From positions 32,001-96,000 of the IMG/VR virus record IMGVR_UViG_3300020394_000003: 64,000 bases of DNA, one strand, 5' to 3'. The position numbers and the translations under genes were made by a program. Source of the stretch: a virus. The notes below the pieces were generated by a model. It was not told where the DNA came from. It was given only the letters and a program-made list of their open reading frames with translations, and did no database searches. Positions 5,412 to 64,000 of this stretch are shown one piece after another; position 1 is the first letter of the stretch, and every line of letters begins with the position of its first letter.

Positions 5412-6731
5412 ATGAGTACGCAAAAAAAGAAAGTTTTAATTAGAGGCCCACTACTCACCAGATCAGGATATGGCGAGCAAGCTAGATTCGCATATAGAGC
5501 ACTAAAATCTAGGCCTGATCTATTTGATGTATATTTGGCTCCAACCAATTGGGGGCAGACTGGATGGATTAGCGACGACAATGATGAGCGCAGAGAGATG
5601 GACAGTGTAATCAGAAACACTACAACCCATGCTCAACAGTGTCAGCAGCAAGGTGTCTTAGCATTTGATGCGTCTATTCAAGTAACCATTCCACAAGAAT
5701 GGCAAAGAATTACACCAAAAAATATTGGATATACAGCAGGCACAGAAACAACCCTTATTTCACACAAATGGGTTGAGTCATGTCAAAATGTAGACAGGAT
5801 TATTGCAGTATCTGAGCACACTAAAGCAGCATTTGAAAATACTGAGTACGAAGGCAGAGATTCGGCCGGAAATACAATCTCAGCTAGGTGTACTACGCCA
5901 ATTGATGTTGTAGGATTCCCAACCAAACAGTTAGAACCAGTCGAGCTAGACTTCAAGCCTGAAACAAAATTTAATTTCTTAGTGGTTGCTCAGTGGTCTG
6001 ACCGTAAGAATTTGCCCGAAACCCTTCAAGGTTTTATGCGAGAATTTAATGATAATGAAGATGTTGGTCTGATTATTAAAACTAGTCTAGCTAAGAACTC
6101 TTACGTGGATAGGATTTATACTGAGGCTAGGTTAAAGCAATATCTTAAAAACTATGATAAAGCACCTTGGAATGGAAAGCCTAGAAAATGCAAATTGTAT
6201 TTACTTCATGGAAATATGTCCGATGAAGAGATGGCTGGACTCTACAGGCACCCTAACGTTAATGCCTTTATCAATCTTGCCCATGGTGAGGGCTTCGGGC
6301 TTCCTATTTTTGAAGCTGCCCAAGCTGGACTACCAATTGTTGCACCCAACTGGGGGGGTATAAAGGATTATATGAATGCGTATGTCACAACTAAGAGAGG
6401 CGCCGGCAAGAAAGCTCGTAAATCGCATGGCCGCATGCGTTTTCTGGGACAAAAGGTAGACTTTAGTGTCAAACCAATTCAAAAAGAAGCAGTATGGGAT
6501 GGAGTGCTGATTCCTGAGTCTAGCTGGTGTTTCCCACATGAAAAAAGTTTTATGCGCGCCATGAGAAAAATTTACAAGTCATATGATTTGGCTCTAAGCG
6601 ATGCTAAAAAATTAAAAGCTCACGTCGAAAAAGAATTTTCAGAAGAGATTCAACAAAATAAATTTGTAGAGTCAGTCCTAGAGACACTTGAGGCGTCTTC
6701 TCCACAATCTACTTCGGTTATTACTTTATGA
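5412..6731 (+). CDS. GT4-family glycosyltransferase
   Basis: SGYGEQAR; WSDRKN; HGEGFGLPIFEAAQAGLP. Confidence 0.9.
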   Translation: MSTQKKKVLIRGPLLTRSGYGEQARFAYRALKSRPDLFDVYLAPTNWGQTGWISDDNDERREMDSVIRNTTTHAQQCQQQGVLAFDASIQVTIPQEWQRITPKNIGYTAGTETTLISHKWVESCQNVDRIIAVSEHTKAAFENTEYEGRDSAGNTISARCTTPIDVVGFPTKQLEPVELDFKPETKFNFLVVAQWSDRKNLPETLQGFMREFNDNEDVGLIIKTSLAKNSYVDRIYTEARLKQYLKNYDKAPWNGKPRKCKLYLLHGNMSDEEMAGLYRHPNVNAFINLAHGEGFGLPIFEAAQAGLPIVAPNWGGIKDYMNAYVTTKRGAGKKARKSHGRMRFLGQKVDFSVKPIQKEAVWDGVLIPESSWCFPHEKSFMRAMRKIYKSYDLALSDAKKLKAHVEKEFSEEIQQNKFVESVLETLEASSPQSTSVITL

Positions 6732-7987
6732 CAAAAAAGATATTATATCAAGGCCAGCTAGGTGATCCTAGCGGATACGCCGTTGCTGGTCGCGGCTATT
6801 TGCGTTCTATGTATGACTACATTCAAGAAAAAAAATTAGATATTGATTTAAAAGTACTTTCTATTAATGCGGATGAGCAGAGTGCTTTAACACAAGAAGA
6901 AGCTGAATTTCTCAATATGCTTTCTTTTGACAGCAACGAAGAGATAGATGCTTGGACTGAGGCCGAGGACTTTCATTACATATTCCATCATCCTCCTGTT
7001 TATGCTTGGAAAATAGACGCAACTAAGTTTTTTGCATCGAAATCAGCGACCACAACCTGTGTTACGGTGTGGGAGACAGATGCAATGCCACCGGTATGGA
7101 ATGATATCCTTAAAGCATTTGAAGTAGACAGAATCGTGGTCCCGTGCCAGTGGAACAAAGATTCTTTTGAAGCTAGTTTAGAGAAATTTGACAATTCGAT
7201 GCCTGTAAAAATGGTGCCTCATTTAATTAATGACGATTTTGTCGGCTCTGCGGAAATTGAACCACTACCTCAAGAGCTTTTGTCCCCTGACCACTTTAAC
7301 GTCTTAACAGTAGGGCAGTGGACCGACAGAAAAGCCCTGATGAATGTCGTCAAAGCATATCTAATGGAATTTAAAGATAACGAAGATTGCTCTTTAGTTG
7401 TTAAAACGTATGGAAATATTCAAGATTCTAGACCTGAGTATCAACAGCAGCAACAACAAATGATGGCTAATGAAATTACTCTTTTAAAAAGATCAATCTT
7501 GAACGACAGTCTATCCAAAACTCCTAGCTGCAAAATTCATCTTCTTTATGGCTTGTTTCCAAAAAGTCAAATGAATTATCTATACAGGGAGAGCGATCTG
7601 TTTGCGCTTTTTAGCCGCGCAGAAGGATTTGGTTTGCCAATTGCTGAATCTCTAGTCCACGAAACTCCTGTAATTGTACATGATAAGGGCGGACATGTAG
7701 GCTTTGTAGATCCTAAAAACAACTATATTGTAAACAGTTATCTAACGCCTGCCCACTGCAAAATCTTTCCATTTGTATATTCGTGTGACAGTAACTGGTT
7801 TGAGACAGACTATATTTCAGCAAGAAAGCAATTGCGATCCGCCTATAATGAATGGAAACACGAGCCTGAAGCATATGCCCAACGAGGCCCAAATGCAAAA
7901 GAATATATGCTTGAAGTAACTGGTGATAGTTTAAAAATTGGTAAAGAGCTAGTTGAATTTGTATTAAGTGAAGATGAAGAAGACTAG
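6728..7987 (+). CDS. GT4-family glycosyltransferase
   Basis: SGYAVAGR; VWETD; WTDRKA; RAEGFGLPIAESL. Confidence 0.88.
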   Translation: MTKKILYQGQLGDPSGYAVAGRGYLRSMYDYIQEKKLDIDLKVLSINADEQSALTQEEAEFLNMLSFDSNEEIDAWTEAEDFHYIFHHPPVYAWKIDATKFFASKSATTTCVTVWETDAMPPVWNDILKAFEVDRIVVPCQWNKDSFEASLEKFDNSMPVKMVPHLINDDFVGSAEIEPLPQELLSPDHFNVLTVGQWTDRKALMNVVKAYLMEFKDNEDCSLVVKTYGNIQDSRPEYQQQQQQMMANEITLLKRSILNDSLSKTPSCKIHLLYGLFPKSQMNYLYRESDLFALFSRAEGFGLPIAESLVHETPVIVHDKGGHVGFVDPKNNYIVNSYLTPAHCKIFPFVYSCDSNWFETDYISARKQLRSAYNEWKHEPEAYAQRGPNAKEYMLEVTGDSLKIGKELVEFVLSEDEED

Positions 7988-8744
7988 ACAATTAAAACGA
8001 GAGTTGAGGCGATTAAAGACGTATGATGAAAGAATCGCCTTTTTAAAAGATACATACGCAAATGAACGTTTGTTTATACTCGCATCTGGTCCGTCGTTAG
8101 GTCACGTCGACAAGCAAGAATTGAAGAAAAAAATGTCAAACTCTTTGACGTTTTCAGTTAAACAGGCATATTTGGAGTATGAGAAAGAGACTGATTTTCA
8201 CTTCATAAACGACTGTAACTTACCAATGATAAATGGATACGCGGGGTATCGTTACGGGGTCAAGTCTGGGCCCATAGTAATAGCCTCCAGTGGCTACACA
8301 GAATCCTATGCAAAAACAAGGTTTGCTCCCCAACAACAGTGGGATATATTTTGTAGAGTTTTGGATCCACTAGTATATCCAAAAAGTAACCTTGGGCGCC
8401 TCTGTGAAAATAATAATTTTGATGAAGGTCTTTTTGATAAAAGAGTTGATAGGCCTTGTGGTCCAAGTATCACCCTAGAAACCGTTATTTATATGGCAGT
8501 TCATGTAGGTATAAAAAATATATATGCAATTGGGTGGGATAGTGGCGACAAGGTAGGTGAGCATTTTTATAAATCCAAGACCCATTTAACAAGTAATCGA
8601 AATTTTGAATATGAAATGGTACAAAAAGGCTCAGGACCGTTGTATAATTGGTTGAGAGATAAAAATGTTAATTTGCACCTAGTAAGTAAGGTTAGTGCAC
8701 TTAGTGAAGAAATTCCAAGAATAGAGTTAAAGGATATAAAATGA
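7968..8744 (+). CDS. DUF115/Maf/GT42-like protein, putative nonulosonic acid transferase
   Basis: FILASGPSL ... YMAVHVGIKNIYAIGWD ... EHFY matches the Cst-II/Maf pattern; directly upstream of neuB. Confidence 0.65.
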   Translation: MKMKKTRQLKRELRRLKTYDERIAFLKDTYANERLFILASGPSLGHVDKQELKKKMSNSLTFSVKQAYLEYEKETDFHFINDCNLPMINGYAGYRYGVKSGPIVIASSGYTESYAKTRFAPQQQWDIFCRVLDPLVYPKSNLGRLCENNNFDEGLFDKRVDRPCGPSITLETVIYMAVHVGIKNIYAIGWDSGDKVGEHFYKSKTHLTSNRNFEYEMVQKGSGPLYNWLRDKNVNLHLVSKVSALSEEIPRIELKDIK

Positions 8745-9571
8745 AAAAAACATATATTATCGCAGAAATCGGGATTAACCATAATGGCTCACTAGCTGTG
8801 GCCAAAAAACTAATTGATATTGCAGCGGTAGCAGGATGTGATGCTGTTAAATTTCAAAAACGAAATCCAGATGTTTGCGTTCCAGAACACCAAAAACAAG
8901 TTATGCGTGAAACCCCATGGGGCACCATGACCTATCTTGAATACAAGTATCGTGTTGAATTTGGAAAAGAAGAATACGACGAAATCGATCAATATTGTCG
9001 TGATAAAGGTATTGCTTGGTCCGCATCACCATGGGATATGGATAGTCTAGAGTTCTTGAGCCAATATGATTTACCTTTTATTAAGATGCCATCTGCAATG
9101 ATTACAAATGAAGAGTTAATGAGAGGCTGCGCACGCACAGGAAAGAAAGTAATTTTTTCAGCAGGAATGTCTACACTTGAAGAGACTGATCAAGCAGTTG
9201 AATGGATGCGCGAAGAAGGAGCAGAGTTTGCACTATTGCACTGCAACTCAACTTACCCAGCCCCTATCGAAGACTTAAACTTACAGTGCATTAAGACTTT
9301 ACAAGATCGATATGAGTGTGAAGTTGGCTACAGTGGCCATGAGTTTCGTCTTGGAACAACAGTCGCTAGTGTGTATTTAGGTGCTACGATCCTTGAGCGT
9401 CACATCACATTAGACCGTACCATGTGGGGGTCTGACCACTTAGCATCTGTAGAGCCACAAGGTCTCATTAAGCTTGTAAAAGGTGTTAGAGAGCTTGAGA
9501 CTGCCTTCGGCGATGGTGTAAAGCGGGTCACAGAAGGTGAAATTAAAGTTAGAAAGAAGTTGAGAGGTTAA
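8741..9571 (+). CDS. neuB: NeuB-family nonulosonic acid synthase (short form, no C-terminal SAF domain)
   Basis: IIAEIGINHNGS, DAVKFQKR, LLHCNSTYP, VGYSGHE, LERHITLDR, GSDH; 276 aa. Confidence 0.95.
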   Translation: MKKTYIIAEIGINHNGSLAVAKKLIDIAAVAGCDAVKFQKRNPDVCVPEHQKQVMRETPWGTMTYLEYKYRVEFGKEEYDEIDQYCRDKGIAWSASPWDMDSLEFLSQYDLPFIKMPSAMITNEELMRGCARTGKKVIFSAGMSTLEETDQAVEWMREEGAEFALLHCNSTYPAPIEDLNLQCIKTLQDRYECEVGYSGHEFRLGTTVASVYLGATILERHITLDRTMWGSDHLASVEPQGLIKLVKGVRELETAFGDGVKRVTEGEIKVRKKLRG

Positions 9572-9572
9572 A

Positions 9573-10862
9573 ATGGATTGGACCGTAAAAGATAGATCAG
9601 TAAAAGAAAAATCACCATCACCGAAGGGCCATCTCCGCGAAGCCGTCGGGCAAAAAAAATGGAATCACTCGGCGAGGGACATCCCTGTAGATAAGTTGGG
9701 TGTTTCAATGGCCAATGGTATAGAGGATGATCATGATTTAAAATACAGAAACATTGACATTAACAATGCTTTACAAGAAGCTCAAGCGTGGGGTGATGGA
9801 AATCGTCTATATGGAAAGATCTGGCACAAGCACACACGGCAAGTTTTAACAAATCTTTTTTCCTCTGGCGAAGCCGGCCATGGTCACTTACAGACGATGG
9901 TAAGACAGTACATAAGAAGGCACCCATCAGCGGTTCATGAAAATATCTGGTTTGACCAGTTGCATCAAAAAATATTTAGCAACGCTCAAACATATTGCTC
10001 GGGCCTAGATCCTATTGAACATAGCTTTTGTTCACCTCGACAAAGTTTTGCAAATCAAACTTGGAACTCAATTGCATCAGAAATGGGCAGAATGATAGAA
10101 AATATGGTAGTTGCCTATAACGCGAAAGGTCAGGTACCTAGTGCTGATGGTGTTACTTCTGACGATATTAATGAAGGCCGTTGTTATGGAGACTTAGTAT
10201 TTCCTGATTTAAGAATTGGTCTATGTCCTGCGGTTACTGGGTTGGCTAATCAAGATAGTGTTTTGATTATCGGTGGAGGGCCATCGACTAATAATATTGA
10301 TTTTTCACAGTTTCAAGATATACCTGTATGGACAATGAATAATTATTATAAGAATCCTTTGTTTGATCAATTTAACAACATTCAGGTTGCCTCTTTTTTA
10401 GATGAGGTTGATGTGTTTTACAATGATCCACTATGGGAGTATGTAAACGATAGAGATACTATCGTACTGCAGGAGATTACAGACTGGGGAACTGAACGAT
10501 TGTCTTATGTCAAAGAAGCAGCGAATTATTCAAGCTACTTTCATACTAGATATAGAAGCAAGCTCGGTATTGGACCTCGCTTGATGATTACTGCAATTAT
10601 TCTGGGGATTAGAAATATTTATTTTTGTGGTTTTGACGGCTACAATACTGAAGATGTTTCCAATAATCATTCATTTGAGTTAGGAAAAGACCTTCCAAAT
10701 TGGATTAAAAACTCTGATCCGGGCACACAAGAGAGACAATATGTGATGCTTTTCGACTATTTGTTAAATGATTTAAAATTGTCTCGGAGTTTTAAATTAC
10801 ATGACCTTTCAGCAGGACAGCCCACATTACAATATGAATTTTTAAGACAGATAATCAGATGA
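9573..10862 (+). CDS. Unknown N-terminal domain plus Cst-II/GT42-like sialyltransferase domain
   Basis: C-terminal half VLIIGGGPSTNNIDFS..VWTMNNYY ... AIILGIRNIYFCGFDGY..HSF parallels Cst-II (IIAGNGPS..IDYS..FRCNQFY ... ALGYKEIYLSGIDFY). Lies between neuB and neuA. Confidence 0.65.
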   Translation: MDWTVKDRSVKEKSPSPKGHLREAVGQKKWNHSARDIPVDKLGVSMANGIEDDHDLKYRNIDINNALQEAQAWGDGNRLYGKIWHKHTRQVLTNLFSSGEAGHGHLQTMVRQYIRRHPSAVHENIWFDQLHQKIFSNAQTYCSGLDPIEHSFCSPRQSFANQTWNSIASEMGRMIENMVVAYNAKGQVPSADGVTSDDINEGRCYGDLVFPDLRIGLCPAVTGLANQDSVLIIGGGPSTNNIDFSQFQDIPVWTMNNYYKNPLFDQFNNIQVASFLDEVDVFYNDPLWEYVNDRDTIVLQEITDWGTERLSYVKEAANYSSYFHTRYRSKLGIGPRLMITAIILGIRNIYFCGFDGYNTEDVSNNHSFELGKDLPNWIKNSDPGTQERQYVMLFDYLLNDLKLSRSFKLHDLSAGQPTLQYEFLRQIIR

Positions 10863-11536
10863 AAAATGTAGAAGATATAGCCGTCGTAATCCAAGCAAGA
10901 TTAGGCTCACAAAGAGTCCCGCAAAAGATGATCAGATCTATTGCGGGAACTACTTTAACAGACATCGCGCTAGAAAAGATTAAAAAATGTACAAGTTTTC
11001 CACAAGAAAACTTTTATTTGTCCGTGCATGAACCTGAACTGCTTAAAATTGGCGAGAAACATAATGTTAATATTTATCGTCGAACAGAAAAATCAGCCAA
11101 GTCAGAAGGCACACCTATGACAGATATGTACGAATGGTGGGATAAATTACCTCATAAATATTGTGTGCTAGTAAATGCTTGTGCTCCGTTCCTAACTTCA
11201 AAAACAATCGACGCGTTTGTCAGAGCATACTCTTACACAGAATCAGATGGAATGTTTGGCGTAATTAGAAAAAAGAATTACTTTTGGAATTTTAACAAGG
11301 ATCTGATAACTCCATTAACGGAAGCAGTAATGAATACCAAGACAGTCGCACCGGTGTATGAAGCGGCACATTGCCTTTATGCCGGCCGCCTAGACAAAAT
11401 TGGAGAAGGGATATGGATGGGAGATTTTAATACTCCCGGTGATATTAAGTTGTTTCATATGGAAGAACAGGAAGTTTTTGATATTGATTATGAGTGGCAA
11501 TTTACAATGGCTGAAAGCTTGATGGAGACAAAGTGA
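10859..11536 (+). CDS. neuA: CMP-nonulosonate synthetase (acylneuraminate cytidylyltransferase)
   Basis: VIQARLGSQRVPQKMIR; NACAPFL; FDIDYEWQF..AE. Confidence 0.88.
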   Translation: MKNVEDIAVVIQARLGSQRVPQKMIRSIAGTTLTDIALEKIKKCTSFPQENFYLSVHEPELLKIGEKHNVNIYRRTEKSAKSEGTPMTDMYEWWDKLPHKYCVLVNACAPFLTSKTIDAFVRAYSYTESDGMFGVIRKKNYFWNFNKDLITPLTEAVMNTKTVAPVYEAAHCLYAGRLDKIGEGIWMGDFNTPGDIKLFHMEEQEVFDIDYEWQFTMAESLMETK

Positions 11537-12321
11537 CAAATTTGCCTCCTAGTAAAGAAGAAGTTAGAAAATTTATGGACACCATTGACCTACCGCCCAA
11601 GCCCCGCGGTAGAGGAATAATGGAGGTTTTATTAACAAAATATTATAATGACTTTCAGACAGTGTTAGATGTTGGTTCTGGAGGCGGTCATCACATTAGG
11701 ACCTTTAAGCACTTTGGCAAAGATACATTTGCATGCGATATGTCAGAACACAGGAACCCTGATTATCTAGGAAATTTTTTAGAAATTAGTTCTCAGATTC
11801 CAGATGGCCATTTCGATTGTGTATGGTGCAGCCATACTTTGGAGCATCAAATAAATGTTGGCGTGTTTTTAAAGGAACTGAAAAGAATTATCAGAGATGA
11901 TGGTATCCTAGCTTTGACTGTACCTCCAGCTAAGCATATGATTGTCCCGGGCCACTTATGCATCTGGAACGGTGGGCTGTTATTATACAACCTTGTCACA
12001 GTGGGCTTCGACTGCTCAGAGGCTATTGTGAGGGATCATAAACCGTCGGCTTACATTGACAGCAAAGGTCGTGAGTCAATTAAACCATATGACGTGTCTG
12101 TGCTAGTAAAAAAGAAAGACATCAATTGGAGTCCAAAAGTATTAGATGCACTACCTAGGGTAATTGAGTTTTCCGATGCAACAGTTCATGATGGAATCTT
12201 GTATATGAGTGGAAAGGGTATGATTAATATTAAGAAATTTTTTCCAAAAGATATCAAGTGGATCAGAAAAGGAAAACAGGGAGATATCCAGCTTGATGGA
12301 AGGGTGGGCAATATAGGTTGA
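11533..12321 (+). CDS. Class I SAM-dependent methyltransferase
   Basis: VLDVGSGGG; FDCVWCSHTLEH; L..DGILALTVP. Confidence 0.88.
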   Translation: MTNLPPSKEEVRKFMDTIDLPPKPRGRGIMEVLLTKYYNDFQTVLDVGSGGGHHIRTFKHFGKDTFACDMSEHRNPDYLGNFLEISSQIPDGHFDCVWCSHTLEHQINVGVFLKELKRIIRDDGILALTVPPAKHMIVPGHLCIWNGGLLLYNLVTVGFDCSEAIVRDHKPSAYIDSKGRESIKPYDVSVLVKKKDINWSPKVLDALPRVIEFSDATVHDGILYMSGKGMINIKKFFPKDIKWIRKGKQGDIQLDGRVGNIG

Positions 12322-12324
12322 GCG

Positions 12325-13134
12325 ATGAAAAAAAAGTTATGTTATATAATACCTTGTTTATATACGAAACAAAATGGGTTTCACATATTTAACTGCGTCA
12401 AATCTGTTAGAAAACAGTTTTCAAAAGTTGATATCTATGTGGTTGACAGCGGCTCATCTGACACTAGCTATCTTAATGTTTTAAAAAAGAAATATGACAT
12501 TATTCCTTTAGATGTGAAAAACAAAAACTTTCCTACTGGTGCCTTGTGGTATGTATACGAGTCAACAAAGGATCAATATGAAAATTACTTTTTACTACAT
12601 GATTCCACAATCATTAAGCAACGAGCTAGGATTGATGAAATTCTACAGGAAGATTACAAAGTGGCCCCAATAACAACATACGAAAAATGGAGTTGGCCAA
12701 AAAAAGACCGTTATGATGATAAATCAAGATCAAGCGCATGGCCCCGAAAGAAGTTTAGAGAAAATGAATTAGAATTTCCAAAAAATAAAAAATTTCTTTC
12801 TATTTTAGGGCCAATGTTTATGATATCGAAAGAGGTACTAGATGAAATTAGTAATACTACATTTTATAATATAAGGCCTAAAATCAAGTATCATTCAATA
12901 TGTATGGAAATTTTGTGGGCCTACACATTCCAGCAGCTTGGGTATAAAGAAAACATGCTTAAATATTCAATTATGCGACCAGAGCTTAAATCAGACGGTA
13001 GAAAAATATATGTTAAAGATAGCAGATATGGTGTGCCTGATCTAAATATCGATACTGAACAGCACAGATGCAAGACTCATGAAGAGCATGATTTTGATAA
13101 CACATTGCAAAAATTTTGGGCAACTAGGCAATAA
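12325..13134 (+). CDS. GT2-like (GT-A) glycosyltransferase
   Basis: YIIPC; IYVVDSGSSD; FLLHDS. Confidence 0.65.
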   Translation: MKKKLCYIIPCLYTKQNGFHIFNCVKSVRKQFSKVDIYVVDSGSSDTSYLNVLKKKYDIIPLDVKNKNFPTGALWYVYESTKDQYENYFLLHDSTIIKQRARIDEILQEDYKVAPITTYEKWSWPKKDRYDDKSRSSAWPRKKFRENELEFPKNKKFLSILGPMFMISKEVLDEISNTTFYNIRPKIKYHSICMEILWAYTFQQLGYKENMLKYSIMRPELKSDGRKIYVKDSRYGVPDLNIDTEQHRCKTHEEHDFDNTLQKFWATRQ

Positions 13135-13135
13135 G

Positions 13136-13753
13136 ATGAACAGTATAAGATTAGTAATTTTTGATTTAGATGGGGTAATTGTTGATGCGTGCGAATGGCA
13201 TCGAGTTGCACTAAATAAAGCACTAGCAGAAGTATGCGATTACACAATTTCAATGGAAGACCATTACACTACTTTTAATGGAATTCCAACAAAAGTAAAG
13301 CTGTCAAAATTAACGGAAATGGGCATAGTAAAACCTGATCAGCATGAAGAAATTTATGATCGAAAACAACAACTAACAGTTGAAACAATTAATTTATCTG
13401 CACCAAGAAGGCAAGAAAAGATTGATTTAATTAAGTATCTGCGTGAGCAAGGGTGTTATGTCGCGTGTTATACAAACAGTATAAGAGAGACAGCTACACT
13501 GATGCTTGACAAGACTGGTGTGCTAGAGCAGATGGATTATTTACTAACAAATCAAGACGTTGAAAACTCAAAACCACACCCGGAAGGGTATAACTTTTTA
13601 GTTGAAAAATTCAATTTAAAAAAGCATCAAGTGCTAATTATAGAAGATTCTCCAAAGGGTAAGCAGGCTGCATATGCATCTGGATGCAATGTATTAGAAG
13701 TAAAGGATCCCGATGAGGTAACGATTGACACATTAAGGGAGTATTTTGAATGA
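13136..13753 (+). CDS. HAD-family phosphatase (beta-PGM-like)
   Basis: IFDLDGVIVD; TNS; KPHPEGY; IEDSPKG. Start moved to the in-frame ATG just after the upstream stop. Confidence 0.88.
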   Translation: MNSIRLVIFDLDGVIVDACEWHRVALNKALAEVCDYTISMEDHYTTFNGIPTKVKLSKLTEMGIVKPDQHEEIYDRKQQLTVETINLSAPRRQEKIDLIKYLREQGCYVACYTNSIRETATLMLDKTGVLEQMDYLLTNQDVENSKPHPEGYNFLVEKFNLKKHQVLIIEDSPKGKQAAYASGCNVLEVKDPDEVTIDTLREYFE

Positions 13754-14466
13754 AGATTTTAATTCCAATGGCAGGCGAAGGAAGTCGTTTTGCTAAAGAA
13801 GGGTATACCTTTCCTAAGCCGCTTATTGATGTACGCGGCAAACCCATGATACAGACAGTAGTGGAAAACTTGGATTTTGATTCCGAGTATGTTTTTCTAG
13901 TAAGAAAAAAACATATTGAACAATACACTGGCTTGTTAGATACGCTAGACAGAATTACAAACGGTCGATTTAACTATGTTGAAGTTGATGGACTAACAGA
14001 GGGTGCTGCCTGCACTGCGCTTTTGGCTGAAAAATATATTGATAACGACGAAGGGTTGCTGATTGCCAACTCCGATCAGTTTATCTCATATGAACCAGAA
14101 AACTTTAATACCATCAAGAGTTTAACTAATGTTGATTCTATCGTATTTACATTTAATGATGTACACCCAAAGTGGTCATTTGTAAAAACAAACTCTCGTG
14201 GATTTATCACTGAAGTCGCCGAAAAAAAGCCAATTTCAAATATTGCAACTTGTGGAATTTATTGGTATAGGCGTGGTTCTGACTTTGTAAAGTATGCCAA
14301 ACAGATGATTGATAAAGATATCAGAGTCAATAATGAGTTTTACATCGCACCAGTGTATAATGAACTGATAGGTGATGGCAAGTCATTGATTCCTTTTTAT
14401 GTTAGTGAGATGTGGGGACTAGGAACACCTGAAGACCTCAAGCGATTTTTAGAGAATCATAGATGA
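13750..14466 (+). CDS. Sugar-phosphate nucleotidyltransferase (capsule-locus type)
   Basis: LIPMAGEGSRF...PKPLI; TEGAACT; ANSDQ; EKKPIS; NNEFYIAPVYN; GLGTPEDL. Confidence 0.88.
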   Translation: MKILIPMAGEGSRFAKEGYTFPKPLIDVRGKPMIQTVVENLDFDSEYVFLVRKKHIEQYTGLLDTLDRITNGRFNYVEVDGLTEGAACTALLAEKYIDNDEGLLIANSDQFISYEPENFNTIKSLTNVDSIVFTFNDVHPKWSFVKTNSRGFITEVAEKKPISNIATCGIYWYRRGSDFVKYAKQMIDKDIRVNNEFYIAPVYNELIGDGKSLIPFYVSEMWGLGTPEDLKRFLENHR

Positions 14467-15299
14467 AGATAAAAATTTATATAGTAACATATAATAACGC
14501 TGAAGATATCAATAACAATTTAAGAATGCTGCTTGATAGTGATCTGAGTGGCCACGAAGTAGAAATTAACGTTATCAACAATCATTCGAATCTTCACATA
14601 AAAGAAGAATATTTAGAGCGAATTAATATTTTACATAATACACTTAGGCCGGACTTCAGCACAGGTCACTTGTCTAGAAATTGGAATCAAGCAATTATAA
14701 ACGGCTTTAAAGACCTGAATGAACCAGACTGCGATATTCTAATTCACACTCAGGATGATGTTGTGTGGAGTAAGGATTGGCTAAAACACACGATTGAGGT
14801 ACACAAGGAGTACACTTTCTTCAGTGGTCAGGTTGGGGACGCATTTTGTAGCTATACTGCCGAAGGCGTAAAAAACATTGGACTTTGGGATGAAAGGTTC
14901 TGTAATATAATGTATCAAGAATTCGATTACTTTTTAAGAGCATTGCTTTACAATAGAGAAAAGTCGAGTATAAATTCTTATGTTTATATGCCGGTAACAG
15001 GTGAAAGAAAGATTGATCTGTTGCTAAATCCCATAGAAGACATAGAAAAAAAGTTTCCTAGGAGACCGGACAGAAACCTAGAACGAGAAGCTGCGCATAC
15101 TAAATCGGGTAGATGGATAAAACAATCTAAATTATTATTTCGTGAAAAATGGGGAATACAACACCCACGACCAGTGTTTCAGGATAATGCTAAAATTGGA
15201 AAACCATCTGTGAAAAACTTCATATACTATCCTTATTTTGAGAAAGACATATATGAACTAGATAAGAAAAATTATGTGGCAGACCTATCAAAAAAATGA
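14463..15299 (+). CDS. GT2-like glycosyltransferase, paralog A
   Basis: IYIVTYN; VINNHS; RNWNQAI; QDD; IGLWDERF; EFDY. Confidence 0.75.
   Translation: MKIKIYIVTYNNAEDINNNLRMLLDSDLSGHEVEINVINNHSNLHIKEEYLERINILHNTLRPDFSTGHLSRNWNQAIINGFKDLNEPDCDILIHTQDDVVWSKDWLKHTIEVHKEYTFFSGQVGDAFCSYTAEGVKNIGLWDERFCNIMYQEFDYFLRALLYNREKSSINSYVYMPVTGERKIDLLLNPIEDIEKKFPRRPDRNLEREAAHTKSGRWIKQSKLLFREKWGIQHPRPVFQDNAKIGKPSVKNFIYYPYFEKDIYELDKKNYVADLSKK
14676..14701 (+). repeat. 26-nt exact direct repeat shared by the two GT2 paralogs (second copy 17139-17164)
   Basis: AGAAATTGGAATCAAGCAATTATAAA occurs in both genes, within longer near-identical stretches. Confidence 0.85.
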
Positions 15300-16111
15300 A
15301 ATATTTCAATAGTATGGGTGAGGTCGAAGAACACCGAAAAACAAATCCAGACATACCAATCTGGCAAATAGTATGTGATACACCGCATGCAAAAAACATT
15401 CATCTAAACCCGAATATACCCGTAGGGGTGAGGGATGGATACTACCCACTTGCGGTTGCAGCATCTGTCAATGAAATATACACACTAGTTAACAGCTATC
15501 ACATTATCGGTAAAGAGATAACAGTATTAGAGCACCATGTGGAACAGCTAGCTAAACCTTTGGAGTATGACAATAAATACAGCCATCCAAAAATGAAAGT
15601 AAACAAAGACATTATAGATCCTCTAAGATTTTGTATAGACCTAGATATTTTTGAAAAAGATCTCGCGGGGAACACACCAGATGAAATTGCAAAGCAAAAA
15701 ATAGATAAGATAATCTCAATTTTAAAAAAGAAAAGCGTCTTGTCTGAAATGCAAGATTTCATAGTCTTAAGCTCTCCGTTTGATAAGCAGCGTAAAAAAT
15801 ATAGCTTTCATATAATTTTGGCAAAAAAAAATTTACTAGTTAAGAATCAATATTCTTTTTTAAAGCTACTGAAAGAAGTAAAGCAGCAAGATAGTAGAAT
15901 AGATAAAATGTTTCCGGGGTTTATAACTAGAGTTTACAAAACAGGAAAATATCCGATGAACCAAAGCAAAGGAAGAATTTTTAGCTGCTATACCGGCATT
16001 CCTGAGACAAAAACATCAGACGCGTTTGATAGTGATAGACATTTTTTTGAGCACACATTAATGTACGCACACGATTACCATAATGATAGTGAGGCATATG
16101 TATTGTTATGA
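15296..16111 (+). CDS. Putative archaeo-eukaryotic primase (PrimPol-like) fold protein
   Basis: LRFCIDLD (hhhDhD), KKYSFHII (SxH) and IDKM....RVYKTGK (compare PrimPol VDLGVY...FRLYKSSK), in the correct order. Confidence 0.55.
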   Translation: MKYFNSMGEVEEHRKTNPDIPIWQIVCDTPHAKNIHLNPNIPVGVRDGYYPLAVAASVNEIYTLVNSYHIIGKEITVLEHHVEQLAKPLEYDNKYSHPKMKVNKDIIDPLRFCIDLDIFEKDLAGNTPDEIAKQKIDKIISILKKKSVLSEMQDFIVLSSPFDKQRKKYSFHIILAKKNLLVKNQYSFLKLLKEVKQQDSRIDKMFPGFITRVYKTGKYPMNQSKGRIFSCYTGIPETKTSDAFDSDRHFFEHTLMYAHDYHNDSEAYVLL

Positions 16112-16929
16112 AAGAATATCACGCATTTTGTCTTTGGAGAGAACATAAAGAACTTAGAGAACTGATATACAAATCTTTTAAGGTAGTGGAGTCAAAAAAG
16201 TATGATTTGGCTCCCGAAGTAAGAGCCAAAAAGGTCAGAGATATATATGAAATATTTATCGTTGCTGAGGATGAGAGAATCTGGTCCAAACACCCAATAG
16301 AGATAATTGTTGTTGAAGTTGACGCTGAATACGGAATAAGAACCACAGGGGGTACAAAGAATACTAGGTTTGTTAACACTGAAGTTTTTGACTTTAAAAC
16401 AAACTCAAGAAAAAAATTAGGAATAAATTTTAGATATATTCACGCTACAGATCACGTTTTAGAATCAAACAAAGTTTTTAAGTCTTTTGAGTTACCACAA
16501 TACATAACAGATTTTACAATGGTTAATTTAAGAGAAGCTAGGGCTGTAAAGTGGCACGTTAACCCTTTTAAGCTGGGCCTTAAAGCATATGAAAATACTG
16601 AAAATTACGATTTTTTAAAAATTACTGAATGTCCTCACTACAATTTTTTACAAGGCCAAAAAGATGAATACTTGAAATATGTAAAAAAAATAGATACTGT
16701 GCATAGTGATGCTGATCGATATAGAAAATTAATAGAAAAATTTGATTATAAGAAATACAATTCAAGTGAAAAAAAAGATCTGATACAAGTCTCGTATATC
16801 GACGAAAAGCCAGTAATAATTGACGGTCTTCACCGAGCTAGTATTTTAATATACAATTATCAGCAGCTAGATGATATAGTAGTAAGGGTAAGAATAAATG
16901 ATAATCATCAATATAGGAACAAGAAGTGA
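16108..16929 (+). CDS. Hypothetical protein with C-terminal ParB/Srx-like motif
   Basis: VIIDGLHRASIL (ParB-type DGxHR); the N-terminal half ends in YIHATDHVLE. Confidence 0.5.
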   Translation: MKEYHAFCLWREHKELRELIYKSFKVVESKKYDLAPEVRAKKVRDIYEIFIVAEDERIWSKHPIEIIVVEVDAEYGIRTTGGTKNTRFVNTEVFDFKTNSRKKLGINFRYIHATDHVLESNKVFKSFELPQYITDFTMVNLREARAVKWHVNPFKLGLKAYENTENYDFLKITECPHYNFLQGQKDEYLKYVKKIDTVHSDADRYRKLIEKFDYKKYNSSEKKDLIQVSYIDEKPVIIDGLHRASILIYNYQQLDDIVVRVRINDNHQYRNKK

Positions 16930-17792
16930 AAATAAAAATATACATTGTTACCTACAAGAACCCTCCTGATCTTAATAGAAACCTTAAATCCATATTTGAA
17001 TCAGATTGGCGAGATTATGATGTCAGCATTAACGTAATCAATAATCATTCTGATTTTCATTTGGATTCCAAATACGAAAAAAAAGTAAATATAATTCACA
17101 ATTCTTTACGTCCCGACTGGAGCACAGGTCACCTAGCAAGAAATTGGAATCAAGCAATTATAAATGGATTTAAAAGTCTAACAAATCCAGACTGTGATAT
17201 CTTGATTCACTGCCAAGACGACAACACATGGTCTAAAGAATGGCTAACAAAATTGGTTGAAATTCACACAAAGTATACATTTTTTACTGGGCAGGCTGGC
17301 GATGCGATGTGTAGTTACACACCGGAAGCTGTGCGGCGAATTGGTCTTTGGGACGAAAGGTTTTGCAGTATTGGGTTTCAAGAATTTGATTACTACACTA
17401 GAGCATATCTGTATAATAAGAACATGTCTAGTATAAATGCTAAGACTAACTTGCTTAATAGCATGCCTGACGTTCAAAGGTATTTCCCGTACAGACCAGA
17501 TAGAAACTCAGAAAGAGAAGCGGAGCATGTACGATCTTCTTCTTATCATACTATAAACTGGAATTTATTAAAATCAAAATGGCTTCCCGATAATATTGCT
17601 GTGGAGCCAAAACAATACTGGAAAACGTTCTTGCAAAACTCAAAAAATATAAAACATTCTAGGGTGCCAAATTATGTATTCTATCCGTATTTTGAAAAAG
17701 ATGTATACAGGCTAAAAGAAAAGAATTATGTAAACATACCAGACACTAATTCGGACGAGGGACAAAAGCTAGCTGGAGTAAAGAAGAAATGA
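16926..17792 (+). CDS. GT2-like glycosyltransferase, paralog B
   Basis: Close paralog of 14463-15299 (MKIKIYIVTY, STGHL.RNWNQAIINGFK, PDCDILIH.QDD, IGLWDERFC, YPYFEKD). Confidence 0.75.
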   Translation: MKIKIYIVTYKNPPDLNRNLKSIFESDWRDYDVSINVINNHSDFHLDSKYEKKVNIIHNSLRPDWSTGHLARNWNQAIINGFKSLTNPDCDILIHCQDDNTWSKEWLTKLVEIHTKYTFFTGQAGDAMCSYTPEAVRRIGLWDERFCSIGFQEFDYYTRAYLYNKNMSSINAKTNLLNSMPDVQRYFPYRPDRNSEREAEHVRSSSYHTINWNLLKSKWLPDNIAVEPKQYWKTFLQNSKNIKHSRVPNYVFYPYFEKDVYRLKEKNYVNIPDTNSDEGQKLAGVKKK

Positions 17793-18586
17793 ACACTCTT
17801 TGTTATATTTTTCATGTGCATAATACTTTTGGAAAACGGCATATTGATATGGCGCTAGAAAGTATTGCAAATCAGGTAGGTGCACCACCCCGGTTCAAAA
17901 CCTTTATTGTATACAATGTCTCGGACGCTATTGACAACGATTATATCGAAAACAAATATGAAGAATATAACCTAAATTTAAGATTTGAAAACTTTGAAAT
18001 ATTTGAAGTTACCAAAAGAACAGAGTCAGTCAGTGAAGACTTCAGAATTCACGTAAAAGAAATTAGCGGTTACGATTGGTATATGGTTCACAAATCGGAC
18101 TTTTATTTACCAAATAGTTTATTCTCCCAAGTTAATCAAAAGATGCTAGCATGCAATAGTAGCACAGAAGCAGAGTATATTAATTTTTCTAAGTTTGATC
18201 TTAGAGAATATGTTACTGCGAAAGATATAAGAACAATGGCAGAGTTTCCTACCTTTGAATCTCTTTCTGCACAAAAATATGCTTGTCATTCTGATTATTA
18301 TTCTTCGCACAAATGGAGCCCTGAGTTATCTCTTGAACATATAGCAATTGGATATCGAGGTAGAAACAAAAAGGGCGAAAATATTTTTGATGGAGTAATG
18401 CATTATTATAATGAATCTGCGAGAAAGAAGATTCAGTTCAACAGCTACTGGGACTCGAAAGATATATTTGAAAATAGAAATCGTGGGATTAAGATGGAAA
18501 TAGACAGAAACCAATATGTTCTCCACATGTTTCATGACATCAATAGAGCAACTTCTCAGAAAAACACAGAAGGTCATAGGTTTTAA
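17789..18586 (+). CDS. Hypothetical protein, possibly a divergent GT-A glycosyltransferase
   Basis: ALESIANQ, FIVYN, HKSDFY and a terminal LHMFH resemble GT2 elements; glycan-cluster context. Confidence 0.4.
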   Translation: MNTLCYIFHVHNTFGKRHIDMALESIANQVGAPPRFKTFIVYNVSDAIDNDYIENKYEEYNLNLRFENFEIFEVTKRTESVSEDFRIHVKEISGYDWYMVHKSDFYLPNSLFSQVNQKMLACNSSTEAEYINFSKFDLREYVTAKDIRTMAEFPTFESLSAQKYACHSDYYSSHKWSPELSLEHIAIGYRGRNKKGENIFDGVMHYYNESARKKIQFNSYWDSKDIFENRNRGIKMEIDRNQYVLHMFHDINRATSQKNTEGHRF

Positions 18587-19021
18587 ATGATCCTAATCGC
18601 CCACAGAGGAAATATTGCTGGTCCTGTACCTAAATTAGAAAACAGACCAGAGTACCTTTCATTAGCCATTGGAAGTGGATATAGTGTAGAGGCAGATGTA
18701 TGGTACCATGACGGACAGATTTTTTTGGGACATGATGAGCCATCTTATCCAATATCATTGCAATTTTTACAAAATGAAGCTATTTGGTGTCATTGTAAAA
18801 ATGTGGAAGCAGCTAGGCTGTTAATTGACAATGATATTCATTGTTTTTACCACAACATTGATGATATAACCATAACGTCTAGGGGATATATCTGGACATA
18901 TCCAAACAAAAAACTGGTAGAACGCTCGGTATGTGTAATGCCCGAACTAGGGTACAGCGGAATTATTGAAAACTGCAGTGCAATATGCAGTGACTACATC
19001 GAAAAATACAAGGATTTATAA
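18587..19021 (+). CDS. Short glycerophosphodiester phosphodiesterase-like protein
   Basis: IAHRGN..EN; VEADVW; LGHD; HCKN. Confidence 0.75.
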   Translation: MILIAHRGNIAGPVPKLENRPEYLSLAIGSGYSVEADVWYHDGQIFLGHDEPSYPISLQFLQNEAIWCHCKNVEAARLLIDNDIHCFYHNIDDITITSRGYIWTYPNKKLVERSVCVMPELGYSGIIENCSAICSDYIEKYKDL

Positions 19022-19362
19022 TGTATACAGAAGAAAGACCATGGGGAATGTTTGAAAACTTGTTAGAATCTGAATACTGCAAAGTAAAAAGAATAACAGT
19101 AAACCCCGGTCAACGTTTGAGTTACCAATATCACCACAAGCGCTCAGAAGTGTGGACAATTGTGCAGGGTAAAGCTCTTATCACTCTTGATGATATAACC
19201 ACAAGATACAAAGCTGGGGACACCATTACGATTCCTACTAGTATGAAACATAGGATCGAGAACGACACAGAAGAGGCTGTAATCTTTATTGAAGTACAAC
19301 ATGGTGAATATTTTGGAGAAGATGATATTGTGAGGATTAGTGATGACTACAACAGATCCTAG
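19021..19362 (+). CDS. Mannose-6-phosphate isomerase type II C-terminal cupin
   Basis: ERPWG; LSYQYHHKRSEVW; HRIEN; IEVQHGEYFGEDDIVRISDDY. Confidence 0.9.
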   Translation: MYTEERPWGMFENLLESEYCKVKRITVNPGQRLSYQYHHKRSEVWTIVQGKALITLDDITTRYKAGDTITIPTSMKHRIENDTEEAVIFIEVQHGEYFGEDDIVRISDDYNRS

Positions 19363-20026
19363 GCAGCTAAACAGAGTAAGAACTTTAATAGGGCCGTTTA
19401 AAAGAAATAAGATGTTCTTTGTGCACATTCCAAAAAATGCAGGAACCACAGTGATGAGGGTGTTGTTACAGCATCCGCAAGGGGCTAGCTGTCATGCTAC
19501 TGCAACACAAATCAATGGATTAGACGAGTATAAAGATTGGAACAATTTTATTTTTTGTAGAGATCCCCTCGATAGATTTATTAGCGTATACCTTTGGCGC
19601 CTCAGAAAAGACGAGCTTATACAAAACATTTCAATGAATGAAGTTGTCGAGAGGCTAAGCAAAGAAAATATTAGACAACCAAAAGAATTATGGGATTTCG
19701 AAACAGACCCTGAAAAGCTTGATCGAATGTTTAACAAGCAGGTAACATGGATAAACAATAAGACTGTTTATGTGGGACGTGTTGAAGCCGTCGGTAATCA
19801 CATGCATTACTTACGCGATCATTACGGTCTACGTATTCCTTGGACAATGACAGAATTTCGAAGACACGAAAACCCAGCAAAAACGTTTGGCCCTCAAACA
19901 CCAGAAACTAGAAAAAAATTAATTAACATTTTAAAGGATTCTACAACTTTACGCAACAATTTTTTTGATTATTATGCTGAAGATTATGAAAGATTCGGGT
20001 ATAATATACCAAAGGGTTTAAAATAA
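19340..20026 (+). CDS. Sulfotransferase (family 2 type)
   Basis: FFVHIPKNAGTTV (5'-PSB loop); RDPLDRFISVY (3'-PB); YAEDYERFGY. Confidence 0.85.
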   Translation: MMTTTDPRQLNRVRTLIGPFKRNKMFFVHIPKNAGTTVMRVLLQHPQGASCHATATQINGLDEYKDWNNFIFCRDPLDRFISVYLWRLRKDELIQNISMNEVVERLSKENIRQPKELWDFETDPEKLDRMFNKQVTWINNKTVYVGRVEAVGNHMHYLRDHYGLRIPWTMTEFRRHENPAKTFGPQTPETRKKLINILKDSTTLRNNFFDYYAEDYERFGYNIPKGLK

Positions 20027-20973
20027 TGTACACCAAAGATCTGTCTCAAACAAAATATGGGATAAACCAAAGCCTGCAAACAGCTCAATCATGGATTGAG
20101 CCAAACAATCCTGATTATTTTTATCGAGGTGGCACTAGGTTTTTGAATCATTGGATACAGCTGCAGAGGCAACGCAGAGAAGAGCATTCAGCACAGATGG
20201 ATAGAATTACTCCTGAAGTTTTGGATATTGTCAAGACAATTGAAGAACAGGGTTACTACAAAATTGAAAATTTTTGGGACACTGAACTGCTAGACGAAGT
20301 AAAAAATCAGACAATTGAGATGATGAGAAGTGCAGATCCTAAAAAGGTGAATTATCCTCAAAACGGAGTTCATACAAAAATCATTCATCCATTAAAAAAT
20401 ATACCAATAACAAACAAGATGGCAACACACCCAAAGATTCAAGCCATCGCAGCGGCATTCCTAGGAGCCCCGGCGGGCCTAGGAACTACAAATCTCAGGA
20501 TGAGCACCGCCGACAAATCTAAAAATGTCGGAACTAACATGTTTCATAAGGACTTTAATAGCCCTATCAGGCTTATTAAGTTTTTTACATATTTTAACGA
20601 CGTTACAAAAGAAAACGGACCTTTTACTTATGTAAAAAATTCAAATCGCATGATGCCATCTGATCCTCCATGGTGGTCAATTCACCGTTGGCCGGATGAC
20701 AAAATTGAAAGCATTTATGGGAAAGATAGAATTATAAATTTAACAGCAAATTACGGAGATCTGATTGTTGCAACTACAAATGGGTTTCACAAAGGCCTTA
20801 AGCTAGAATCGGGAGAAAGGCTGATGCTGACCCTTAATTATCTTATTCATCCCGAGTGCGGAGACAGAGGATTTGATGCACCGCCAGAGGCAATTCATCC
20901 TGTTTTGAAAGATACTTTTGATGACCTTGCCCCCGAGGACAAATATTTATATGACTTTATGGAGAGAGTATGA
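20026..20973 (+). CDS. 2OG-Fe(II) dioxygenase, PhyH-like
   Basis: FHKD (HxD), YFNDV..ENGPF, GDLIV, FHKG, distal R. Confidence 0.8.
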   Translation: MYTKDLSQTKYGINQSLQTAQSWIEPNNPDYFYRGGTRFLNHWIQLQRQRREEHSAQMDRITPEVLDIVKTIEEQGYYKIENFWDTELLDEVKNQTIEMMRSADPKKVNYPQNGVHTKIIHPLKNIPITNKMATHPKIQAIAAAFLGAPAGLGTTNLRMSTADKSKNVGTNMFHKDFNSPIRLIKFFTYFNDVTKENGPFTYVKNSNRMMPSDPPWWSIHRWPDDKIESIYGKDRIINLTANYGDLIVATTNGFHKGLKLESGERLMLTLNYLIHPECGDRGFDAPPEAIHPVLKDTFDDLAPEDKYLYDFMERV

Positions 20974-21281
20974 TTGTATATATTGATATTGATGAGACAA
21001 TCGCAAAAACCCCTGATAGTAGAGATTATAGCTTGTCTAAGCCTATTGAAGAAAATATTAAAAAGGCAAACAAGTATTATGAAGAAGGACACACTGTCGT
21101 GTACTGGACTGCTAGAGGTTCAGGAACCGGCATTGATTGGTATGATGTTACCAAAAAACAACTTAAGTCATGGGGAGTAAAACACCATGAGCTGAGATTA
21201 GGTAAACCAGTCTATGATTTGTTTATAGACGATAAAGCAATGAACCCATCAGTATGGGAGAACAAAGGAGAAGCCAAATGA
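20970..21281 (+). CDS. Small HAD phosphatase (capsule-locus type)
   Basis: YIDIDETI; WTARG; GKP..DLFIDDKA. Confidence 0.82.
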   Translation: MIVYIDIDETIAKTPDSRDYSLSKPIEENIKKANKYYEEGHTVVYWTARGSGTGIDWYDVTKKQLKSWGVKHHELRLGKPVYDLFIDDKAMNPSVWENKGEAK

Positions 21282-63616: not shown

Positions 63617-63787
63617 ATGGAGTCAATTAAGCTTGTTTTTGCTGGTTTTTTTATGGGGTTCGCAATCAGCTGTATTCTCGCATCAGTAGCTCGCGCCCCT
63701 AGTGTAACACATATCGACAAGGAGAAGCTACAAGACAAAGAAATCGAAGCTGTCATCTTGCTAGAGATTCCTGAAACTAATGAATGA
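63617..63787 (+). CDS. 56-aa membrane/signal-anchored small protein (not in the ORF track)
   Basis: MESIKLVFAGFFMGFAISCILASVARAPSVTHIDKEKLQDKEIEAVILLEIPETNE*, with a strong RBS and promoter. Confidence 0.7.
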   Translation: MESIKLVFAGFFMGFAISCILASVARAPSVTHIDKEKLQDKEIEAVILLEIPETNE

Positions 63788-64000
63788 GCATGAAAAATAT
63801 AAGATTGTAACAAAAGTTTTGGGTCACTCTTACAGATCTGGCACAGAACATTTGTACCATTGTCCGTATTGTAAGCATCACAAGAAAAAACTATCAGTTA
63901 ATTTTGAGCGTGATGTCTACAAGTGTTGGATATGTGATGCCCGCGGCCGCACCATTCGCCGTATTGTTAGACGTTTTGGAAATTTGACTTTATTAAGGGA
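63780..64000 (+). CDS. DNA primase N-terminal zinc-binding domain (runs off the window; not in the ORF track)
   Basis: MNEHEKYKIV...YHCPYCKHHKKKLSVNFERDVYKCWICDARG has two CxxC pairs; the frame is open to the window end. Confidence 0.75.
   Translation, partial: MNEHEKYKIVTKVLGHSYRSGTEHLYHCPYCKHHKKKLSVNFERDVYKCWICDARGRTIRRIVRRFGNLTLLR

Follow-up and report, generated by a model that had tools for sequence, protein, structure and literature searches.

The 64,000-nucleotide stretch of viral DNA analysed here (referred to as the window; positions 32,001 to 96,000 of IMG/VR record IMGVR_UViG_3300020394_000003) contains, within an island of glycan genes, an open reading frame (ORF) for a 271-amino-acid protein, P0001. 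We predict this protein to be a stand-alone catalytic core belonging to the superfamily of archaeo-eukaryotic primases (AEPs), of the type found in PrimPol, herpesviruses, and nucleocytoplasmic large DNA viruses (NCLDV). The ATG start of its gene overlaps the upstream stop codon in the sequence ATGA, and at the other end the stop codon likewise overlaps the ATG of the following gene. The original prediction, made from the sequence, held that the gene overlaps glycan genes on both sides. The 4-nt overlaps are present at both ends, and the upstream neighbor does encode a GT-A/GT2-like glycosyltransferase (GT), designated GT2a, but the downstream neighbor encodes P0007, a fusion of a nucleoside diphosphate kinase (NDK) fold with a ParB/sulfiredoxin (Srx)-like domain, and is not a recognizable glycan gene. 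The plus strand carries every large ORF of the window.

Three AEP motifs had been reported for this gene, and all three are found in the translated ORF where they had been placed: RFCIDLD at residues 111-117 (nt 15626-15646), KKYSFHII at residues 167-174 (nt 15794-15817), and ID-x8-RVYKTGK at residues 202-218 (nt 15899-15949). They conform to motif I (DxD/E), motif II (SxH), and motif III (hD) of the superfamily and lie on strands of the palm. The family alignment comprises nine rows, which represent seven distinct homologous sequences that are approximately 50% identical and include partial copies on two contigs (L030 and L031). Residues D115-x-D117, K168-x-S170-x-H172, D203, and R212/K215/K218 are invariant in all seven. 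The motifs are unlikely to reflect chance, because their residues are invariant at this level of divergence, lie on the expected palm strands, and belong to a protein whose best structural matches are AEPs of the PrimPol clade. The stretch formed by motif III and the basic loop that follows it is the best conserved part of the family, yet residues 210-226 of that loop are the worst modeled (predicted local distance difference test score, pLDDT, below 50), as is expected for a substrate-binding loop.

An AlphaFold2 model of P0001 was built from a five-row alignment (mean pLDDT 73.6, predicted template-modeling score 0.75). It displays the two-module fold of AEPs: an alpha/beta N-terminal module, followed by an RNA-recognition-motif (RRM)-like palm in the order beta(112-119), alpha(128-145), beta(155-159), beta(168-175), alpha(185-196), beta(202-207). 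Palm strand 1 carries D115 and D117, strand 3 carries S170 and H172, and strand 4 carries D203, which is the AEP arrangement. When the model was compared with the PDB using Foldseek, the first ten rows were all human PrimPol (E 2.4e-4 to 2.7e-3), followed by the PrimPol of African swine fever virus (ASFV) and poxvirus D5/E5; the top matches in BFVD were all primases of NCLDV or herpesviruses. Alignment to human PrimPol with VIA-align gave a Z score of 11.1 and a root-mean-square deviation (rmsd) of 4.2 A over 196 aligned residues, pairing residues 1-256 of the model with PrimPol 42-332. Other AEPs scored lower in the same comparison (monkeypox virus E5 and vaccinia virus D5, Z 7.0-7.5; ASFV, about 7; herpes simplex virus UL52, 6.5). 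In an unbiased search against 48,161 chains, PrimPol (Z 10.8) was the sole chain with Z of 8 or above. Generic ferredoxin- or RRM-like domains began at Z 6.6, and other AEP types were lower still (PriS, 5.1; CRISPR-associated Prim-Pol [CAPP], 5.0). Over both structure searches, the scores ranged from 7.0 to 7.5 for D5/E5, from 6.6 to 7.1 for ASFV, and from 5.8 to 6.5 for UL52. The closest structures thus come from the PrimPol/NCLDV-herpes clade and not from the PriS, LigD-Pol, or pRN1 types. The AEP fold of P0001 and its membership in that clade, as originally proposed, are strongly supported by the modeled structure, its best match to PrimPol in Foldseek, and the conserved active-site residues.

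The active site of human PrimPol provides a guide to that of P0001. Its metal ligands are D114, E116, and D280, so that its motif I reads DxE; the triphosphate is held by K165, S167, H169, R288, R291, and K297; and template-binding motifs lie in its N-terminal module, ModN (Ia, RQ, R47/Q48; Ib, QRhY/F, Q75/R76/Y78) (PMC5088642). In the phage protein, K168-x-S170-x-H172 has a spacing identical to that of PrimPol K165/S167/H169, and R212, K215, and K218 follow D203, in the loop modeled with low confidence, at distances similar to those at which R288, R291, and K297 follow D280. These two sets of residues may therefore be equivalent in binding the nucleoside triphosphate (NTP). The invariant W23-Q24 and G44-V-R46-x-G-Y49 are candidates, by sequence only, for ModN motifs Ia and Ib. 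The predicted isoelectric point spans 5.6 to 9.4 across the family and is uninformative on DNA binding. The possibility was considered that the DxD is instead a GT-A motif and P0001 a paralogue of the neighboring GT-like proteins of about 270 amino acids; it was rejected, as the alignment showed approximately 20% identity and no common motifs, and the fold is that of an AEP and not GT-A.

Curated sequence profiles do not recognize P0001. Searches of all family members against Pfam down to an E value of 10 gave no AEP family match, PHROGs and NCBIfam profiles did not recognize P0001, and PDB sequences gave no match to it with either phmmer or the family profile. Single-family searches of the phage genome with PF03121 and PF09250 were likewise negative. 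The sole family suggested for P0001 at the sequence level, RE_Eco47II, was a sub-threshold match (E 0.015) and was rejected. The family is also small. A library of 5.8 billion proteins yielded four relatives at approximately 50% identity, the same four being recovered by word search and by profile search; a phmmer search of 1.8 billion representatives without length limit yielded one relative and a fragment; and one further contig with a homologue was found in JGI metagenomes. No homologue was found in the IMG/VR and cultured phages searched. All homologues found are on marine phage contigs.

Table 1. Positions, in window coordinates, of the P0001 gene, its motifs, and other genes discussed in the text
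Feature	Position	Strand	Basis
P0001, predicted stand-alone AEP (PrimPol/NCLDV-herpes type) catalytic core, 271 aa	15296..16111	+	Model, Foldseek, VIA-align
Motif I, R-F-C-I-D115-L-D117-I, predicted metal ligands	15626..15649	+	D115, L116, D117, I118 invariant; strand 112-119, pLDDT ~85-91
Motif II, K-K168-Y-S170-F-H172-I-I, predicted NTP phosphate binding	15794..15817	+	K168, S170, H172 invariant; strand 168-175
Motif III (I-D203) and basic loop I-T-R212-x-Y-K215-x-G-K218-x-P-M-N-Q	15899..15964	+	D203 on strand 202-207
L-E-H-H-x-E, residues 78-83, N-terminal module	15527..15544	+	Invariant in 9 rows; end of strand 76-79, before low-confidence loop
GT2a, GT-A/GT2-like glycosyltransferase, stop overlaps AEP start	14463..15299	+	Pfam Glycos_transf_2 E 3.7e-4
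P0007, putative NDK-fold (1-130) :: ParB/Srx-like (135-273) fusion	16108..16929	+	Model, fold matches
GT2b, GT-A/GT2-like, GT2a paralogue	16926..17792	+	Pfam GT2 and Glyco_tranf_2_2, weak; sister clade to GT2a 98/98
P0008, 265 aa, last conserved cassette member	17789..18586	+	Homologues at same position
HAD phosphatase/mutase-like and NTP_transferase (sugar-1-P nucleotidylyltransferase)	13136..14466	+	Pfam HAD_2 5e-27, NTP_transferase 1.5e-8
Start of DnaG-type primase, 311 aa, extending past window end (to genome 96715)	63780..64000	+	Zn_ribbon_DnaG, DNAG_N, Toprim

The homologues do not occur in random contexts, which the original prediction had named as the sign of a passenger insertion. Nine AEP-bearing loci, representing at least five lineages, are known (the window, L005, L006, L007, L008, L009-12, L013-15, L030, and L031), and in every one the gene sits in the same GT-A / AEP / NDK::ParB-Srx / GT-A cassette. 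The full order is GT2a, AEP, an optional WavE-like GT of 262-269 amino acids, the P0007 family, the second GT-A gene GT2b, and the P0008 family, with 4-nt overlaps at all junctions. Association with glycan genes is thus conserved and non-random, the AEP gene lying between GT-A paralogues in all nine loci. The L009 orthologue of GT2a scores above the Pfam cut-off (24.4 bits). Homologues of P0008 in L009-L014 share 30-33% identity with it and occupy the same position; no family match (Pfam, PHROGs, NCBIfam) or PDB match was found for P0008. The optional gene, found between the AEP and P0007 genes in L013 (9195-10004), L008 (1101-1889), and L030 (713-1501), encodes a putative lipopolysaccharide glycosyltransferase (PF07507), so the AEP and P0007 genes need not adjoin. 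The surroundings of the cassette are rearranged between loci; in L013, for example, other genes separate the cassette from a HAD-NTP_transferase fusion located 7 kb upstream.

A single-copy homologue of GT2a/b was found in 12 IMG/VR phage loci, usually together with genes for HAD, NTP_transferase, and a 144-amino-acid protein. Within 8 kb of the GT gene in these 12 loci, tblastn and profile searches detected no AEP, P0007, NeuB, or CTP_transf_3, whereas NeuB and CTP_transf_3 are both present in three of the three long cassette loci (the window, L009, and L013). In a maximum-likelihood tree, GT2a and GT2b form sister clades (98/98) separate from all the single-copy genes. The cassette therefore goes back to one duplication in a common ancestor, with a two-gene insert between the copies, all of which have been kept since. 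The AEP gene has a GC of 0.344; its GC and its GC at third codon positions (GC3) equal those of the flanking GT genes, so it is not a recent foreign insertion, and a foreign-cassette signature was considered and rejected. In the comparison of composition across the cassette, the P0007 gene alone is slightly more AT-rich. Promoter- and terminator-like sites occur at chance level only.

P0007 accompanies the AEP in 100% of cases. Its model (pLDDT 79.8) has two domains, the first of which (residues 1-130) matches mimivirus NDK with Z 10.6 and an rmsd of 2.4 A over 108 aligned residues (Foldseek E 3.5e-4). The second (residues 135-273) has weak matches to KorB-CTP (Z 5.4), sulfiredoxin (4.8), and free serine kinase (4.8). 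I-H112-A-T-D-H-x-x-E and D239-G-L-H-R are invariant in the family; the former we take to resemble the phospho-histidine segment of NDKs. Pfam gave no NDK or ParBc match to P0007, and no other family matched. Relative to known proteins, then, the N-terminal domain has the NDK fold with an IH(A/G)(T/S)D-like histidine motif, and the C-terminal domain is a weak fold match to the NTP-binding domains of ParB, sulfiredoxin, and SerK, with a D-G-x-H-R motif and no helix-turn-helix DNA-binding domain. No report of such a fusion was found in the literature searched. Judged by their modeled folds, the three domains of the AEP/P0007 pair would all handle nucleotides. Prediction of a complex between the two proteins gave a score of 0.00, which is evidence neither way.

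The absence of a Zn finger or helicase partner, noted originally, holds for both the AEP gene and the cassette, and PriCT was also not found in either. P0001 is 271 amino acids long, has only one invariant Cys, and gave no domain matches; no UL52-type Zn finger and no helicase or PriCT module was recognized in it, and the library-wide phmmer search without length limit revealed no fused forms of the AEP. The separate primase noted near the end of the window is of the DnaG type, with Zn ribbon, DnaG_N, and Toprim, and is encoded approximately 48 kb downstream of the AEP gene. P0001 is thus not the replicative primase: Zn finger, PriCT, and helicase are all missing, and a primase of the DnaG type is encoded elsewhere in the phage genome. 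The PrimPol core alone polymerizes, priming requiring the Zn finger (PMC5088642), and by analogy de novo priming by P0001 is less likely than a role as an extender or transferase.

The window belongs to a viral record of 161.7 kb, estimated to be 89% complete, and the same AEP gene is present on a 168-kb ENA contig. The genome encodes PhoH and a baseplate-wedge protein. The nearest cultured relatives of its DnaG-type primase come from Flavobacterium phage 'immuto' (identity 47%, query coverage 44%) and from a Microcystis phage, and not from T4-like cyanophages. We therefore regard the virus as a large marine myovirus-like phage and not a classical T4-like cyanophage; the primase relatives also hint at a non-cyanobacterial host, possibly a member of the Bacteroidota. 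Two giant ORFs on the plus strand, 25620-33191 (2523 amino acids) and 37039-49992 (4317 amino acids), flank baseplate-wedge-like genes.

The region 4134-21281 of the window encodes three GT4 enzymes, NeuB, a CMP-transferase (CTP_transf_3), a methyltransferase, HAD, NTP_transferase, GT2-like proteins, a cupin, a sulfotransferase, and a PhyH-type dioxygenase. NeuB and CTP_transf_3 lie within 8741-11536 of the window; in L009, CTP_transf_3 is part of an 830-amino-acid fusion with a GT2-like region. The genes on either side of NeuB (7968-8744 and 9573-10862, plus strand) give weak matches to MptE-like/DUF115 (E 5.9e-5) and to CST-I-like sialyltransferase (E 0.006), consistent with nonulosonate transferases. 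HAD and NTP_transferase are adjacent, separate genes here and a single fused gene of 452-457 amino acids in L009 (7025-8383), L012, and L013 (1-963). The ORF listing starts the HAD gene at 13079, where it overlaps the previous gene; public gene calls use 13136. A 144-amino-acid protein with no known function (18587-19021, plus strand; PHROG 34507) accompanies the GT2-like gene and the HAD/NTP_transferase pair more constantly than any other; its homologues adjoin the GT gene in L009, in L013, and in the majority of the 12 IMG/VR loci that lack the cassette.

From these data we favor, at about an even probability, the reading that P0001 is an active, non-replicative AEP nucleotidyl transferase, tied functionally to its cassette and to the NDK::ParB/Srx protein. 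It would consist of a ModN-like N-terminal module and an RRM-like palm in which D115, D117, and D203 are placed to hold two metals, and K168-x-S170-x-H172, together with the loop bearing R212, K215, and K218, to hold the triphosphate of an NTP. The chemistry would be NTP-dependent, a nucleoside monophosphate (NMP) being added to a hydroxyl acceptor with release of pyrophosphate. The NDK::ParB/Srx protein may serve as the nucleotide-handling partner, making or regenerating the NTP (for example, from NMP or nucleoside diphosphate [NDP]). An attractive idea is that it might regenerate CTP or other NTPs from the CMP or NDP released by glycosyltransferases, which would fit its co-occurrence with NeuB and the CMP-transferase. 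P0001 is a constant member of the translationally coupled cassette (GT-A, AEP, NDK::ParB/Srx, GT-A, P0008), a unit of single origin with the GT duplication that has persisted through divergence to approximately 50% identity.

The default acceptor, carrying somewhat the larger part of the probability of this nucleotidyl transferase reading, is the 3'-OH of a nucleotide or nucleic acid, through template-directed extension or the synthesis of short oligonucleotides. It is the default because the whole PrimPol-like core has been kept and because, to our knowledge, every characterized AEP acts on nucleic acids. A sugar or sugar phosphate of the glycan pathway is a minority option, with a clearly smaller share.

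Several considerations weigh against the nucleotidyl transferase reading. The functional tie to the cassette reflects one ancestral event followed by retention, with no independent associations; the contexts of the homologues are therefore not independent of one another, and unrelated genes often sit in tight operons of phage islands. AEP membership itself derives from a model of moderate confidence built from five sequences, together with the motifs, and no AEP family profile detects P0001. The loop after motif III is poorly modeled, and the equivalences with PrimPol residues were drawn from spacing and not from superposition. The role given to the NDK::ParB/Srx protein is an inference only.

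The best of the alternatives, possible if distinctly less probable than a cassette-tied transferase, is that P0001 is a conventional PrimPol-type DNA polymerase, or a translesion or repriming enzyme acting on phage DNA. Its location in the island would then be a matter of hitch-hiking, the NDK::ParB/Srx protein would merely supply dNTPs, and a helper might provide template grip in trans. That characterized AEPs all act on nucleic acids is established knowledge and favors such an enzyme, as do the extent of the best structural match, which covers the whole PrimPol core including ModN, the candidate counterparts of the RQ and QRhY template-binding motifs, and the single origin of the cassette. 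Such an enzyme sits less easily with the absence of the family from every other phage searched, among them relatives that carry the same GT module. Moreover, the AEP gene is never found in a replication module and is remote from the DnaG-type primase. Its translational coupling to GT genes and its retention between them, despite long divergence and local rearrangement, also weigh against this alternative.

The original prediction had raised the possibility that an AEP fold was repurposed for glycan chemistry. This is suggested by context only. In an extended form of the idea, an AEP/PrimPol fold and the NDK::ParB/Srx protein would have been recruited into glycan biosynthesis, either to nucleotidylate a sugar or sugar phosphate or to make a nucleotide or oligonucleotide acceptor for the flanking GT-A paralogues; we regard such recruitment as rather improbable. 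If true, it would be the first AEP role outside DNA or RNA priming, replication, and repair. Sugar nucleotidylation would open a new way of making an activated sugar or of capping a glycan with a nucleotide, and a glycan built on a nucleotide or oligonucleotide would be a phage-made glyco-nucleotide conjugate.

A link between the island and nucleic-acid modification, also proposed originally, found no support in the gene content. Here the cassette or the whole island would add sugars to nucleic acid as a hypermodification. DNA or nucleotides would be glycosylated by the GT-A paralogues, the NDK::ParB/Srx protein would process modified nucleotides or target DNA, and the AEP would incorporate or tolerate the modified nucleotides. 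DNA-glycosylating phage GT-A enzymes have been described, as have ParB-like proteins that activate thymine dioxygenases of phages (10.1101/2023.12.21.572611; PMC13229309), and all three domains of the AEP/P0007 pair are predicted to handle nucleotides. Described DNA-glycosylation pathways are, however, always paired with a hydroxymethylase of the ThyS-like type or a dioxygenase of the TET/JBP type (10.1101/2023.12.21.572611), and no ThyS-like, Tet_JBP, or C5-methyltransferase match was found in the 89%-complete, 161.7-kb genome. The dioxygenase of the island is of the PhyH type, and the NeuB, CMP-transferase, and GT4 genes indicate a conventional glycan, so that we consider hypermodification unlikely. 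Least probable is a degenerate, inactive AEP relic or a misleading model with coincidental motifs: sequence profiles give no support and the model derives from only five sequences at a pLDDT of 73.6, but the catalytic and NTP-binding positions are all invariant while the rest has diverged to approximately 50% identity, PrimPol exceeds each non-AEP chain by more than 3 Z units, and the top BFVD matches are all primases.

Among known systems, the core of human PrimPol (CCDC111; PDB 5L2X/7JK1) is closest, matching P0001 over nearly its full length with Z of about 11. In sequence, the two have in common the acidic pair of motif I, a K-x-S-x-H motif II, and an Asp of motif III that precedes a basic loop, and P0001 has the size of the PrimPol core that is a polymerase but not a primase alone. 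They differ in that sequence identity is approximately 15%, with no homology detectable by hidden Markov models; the phage protein lacks the UL52-type Zn finger and the RPA-binding tail; its motif I is DxD and not DxE; and it has a lineage-specific invariant LEHHxE and is encoded in a phage glycan operon. The primase domains of NCLDV and poxvirus D5-E5, ASFV C962R, and herpesvirus UL52 belong to the same clade by fold (Z 6.5-7.5), and NCLDV primases dominate the BFVD matches, but each of these forms the N-terminal part of a large primase-helicase that also contains Zn-binding, D5_N, and SF3 helicase modules, whereas the phage protein is a 271-amino-acid stand-alone core. The Prim-Pol of bacteria, phages, and plasmids (pRN1 ORF904 type, PF09250) and CRISPR-associated Prim-Pol are also mobile-element-encoded members of the superfamily; the structural match to them is much weaker (CAPP Z 5.0), there is no PF09250 match, and they are normally fused to or beside helicase/PriCT modules, unlike P0001.

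The fold and chemistry are of a known kind. What is new is the sequence family, its minimal stand-alone phage form, the resemblance to PrimPol rather than to phage Prim-Pol, the NDK::ParB/Srx partner, and the glycan-operon setting. The literature searched contained no report of these features, nor of an AEP in a glycan cluster. We know of AEPs only as primases, polymerases, and repair enzymes, and the strict pairing of an AEP with an NDK::ParB/Srx protein in a nonulosonate-type glycan operon is unusual. The cassette offers a testable case of either a neofunctionalized AEP or a dedicated module for nucleotide supply or regeneration in phage glycan synthesis. The PrimPol/NCLDV-herpes branch is regarded as centered on eukaryotes and large eukaryotic viruses; a minimal phage member nearest to human PrimPol widens the host range of this clade and provides a compact, 271-amino-acid model of the PrimPol core.

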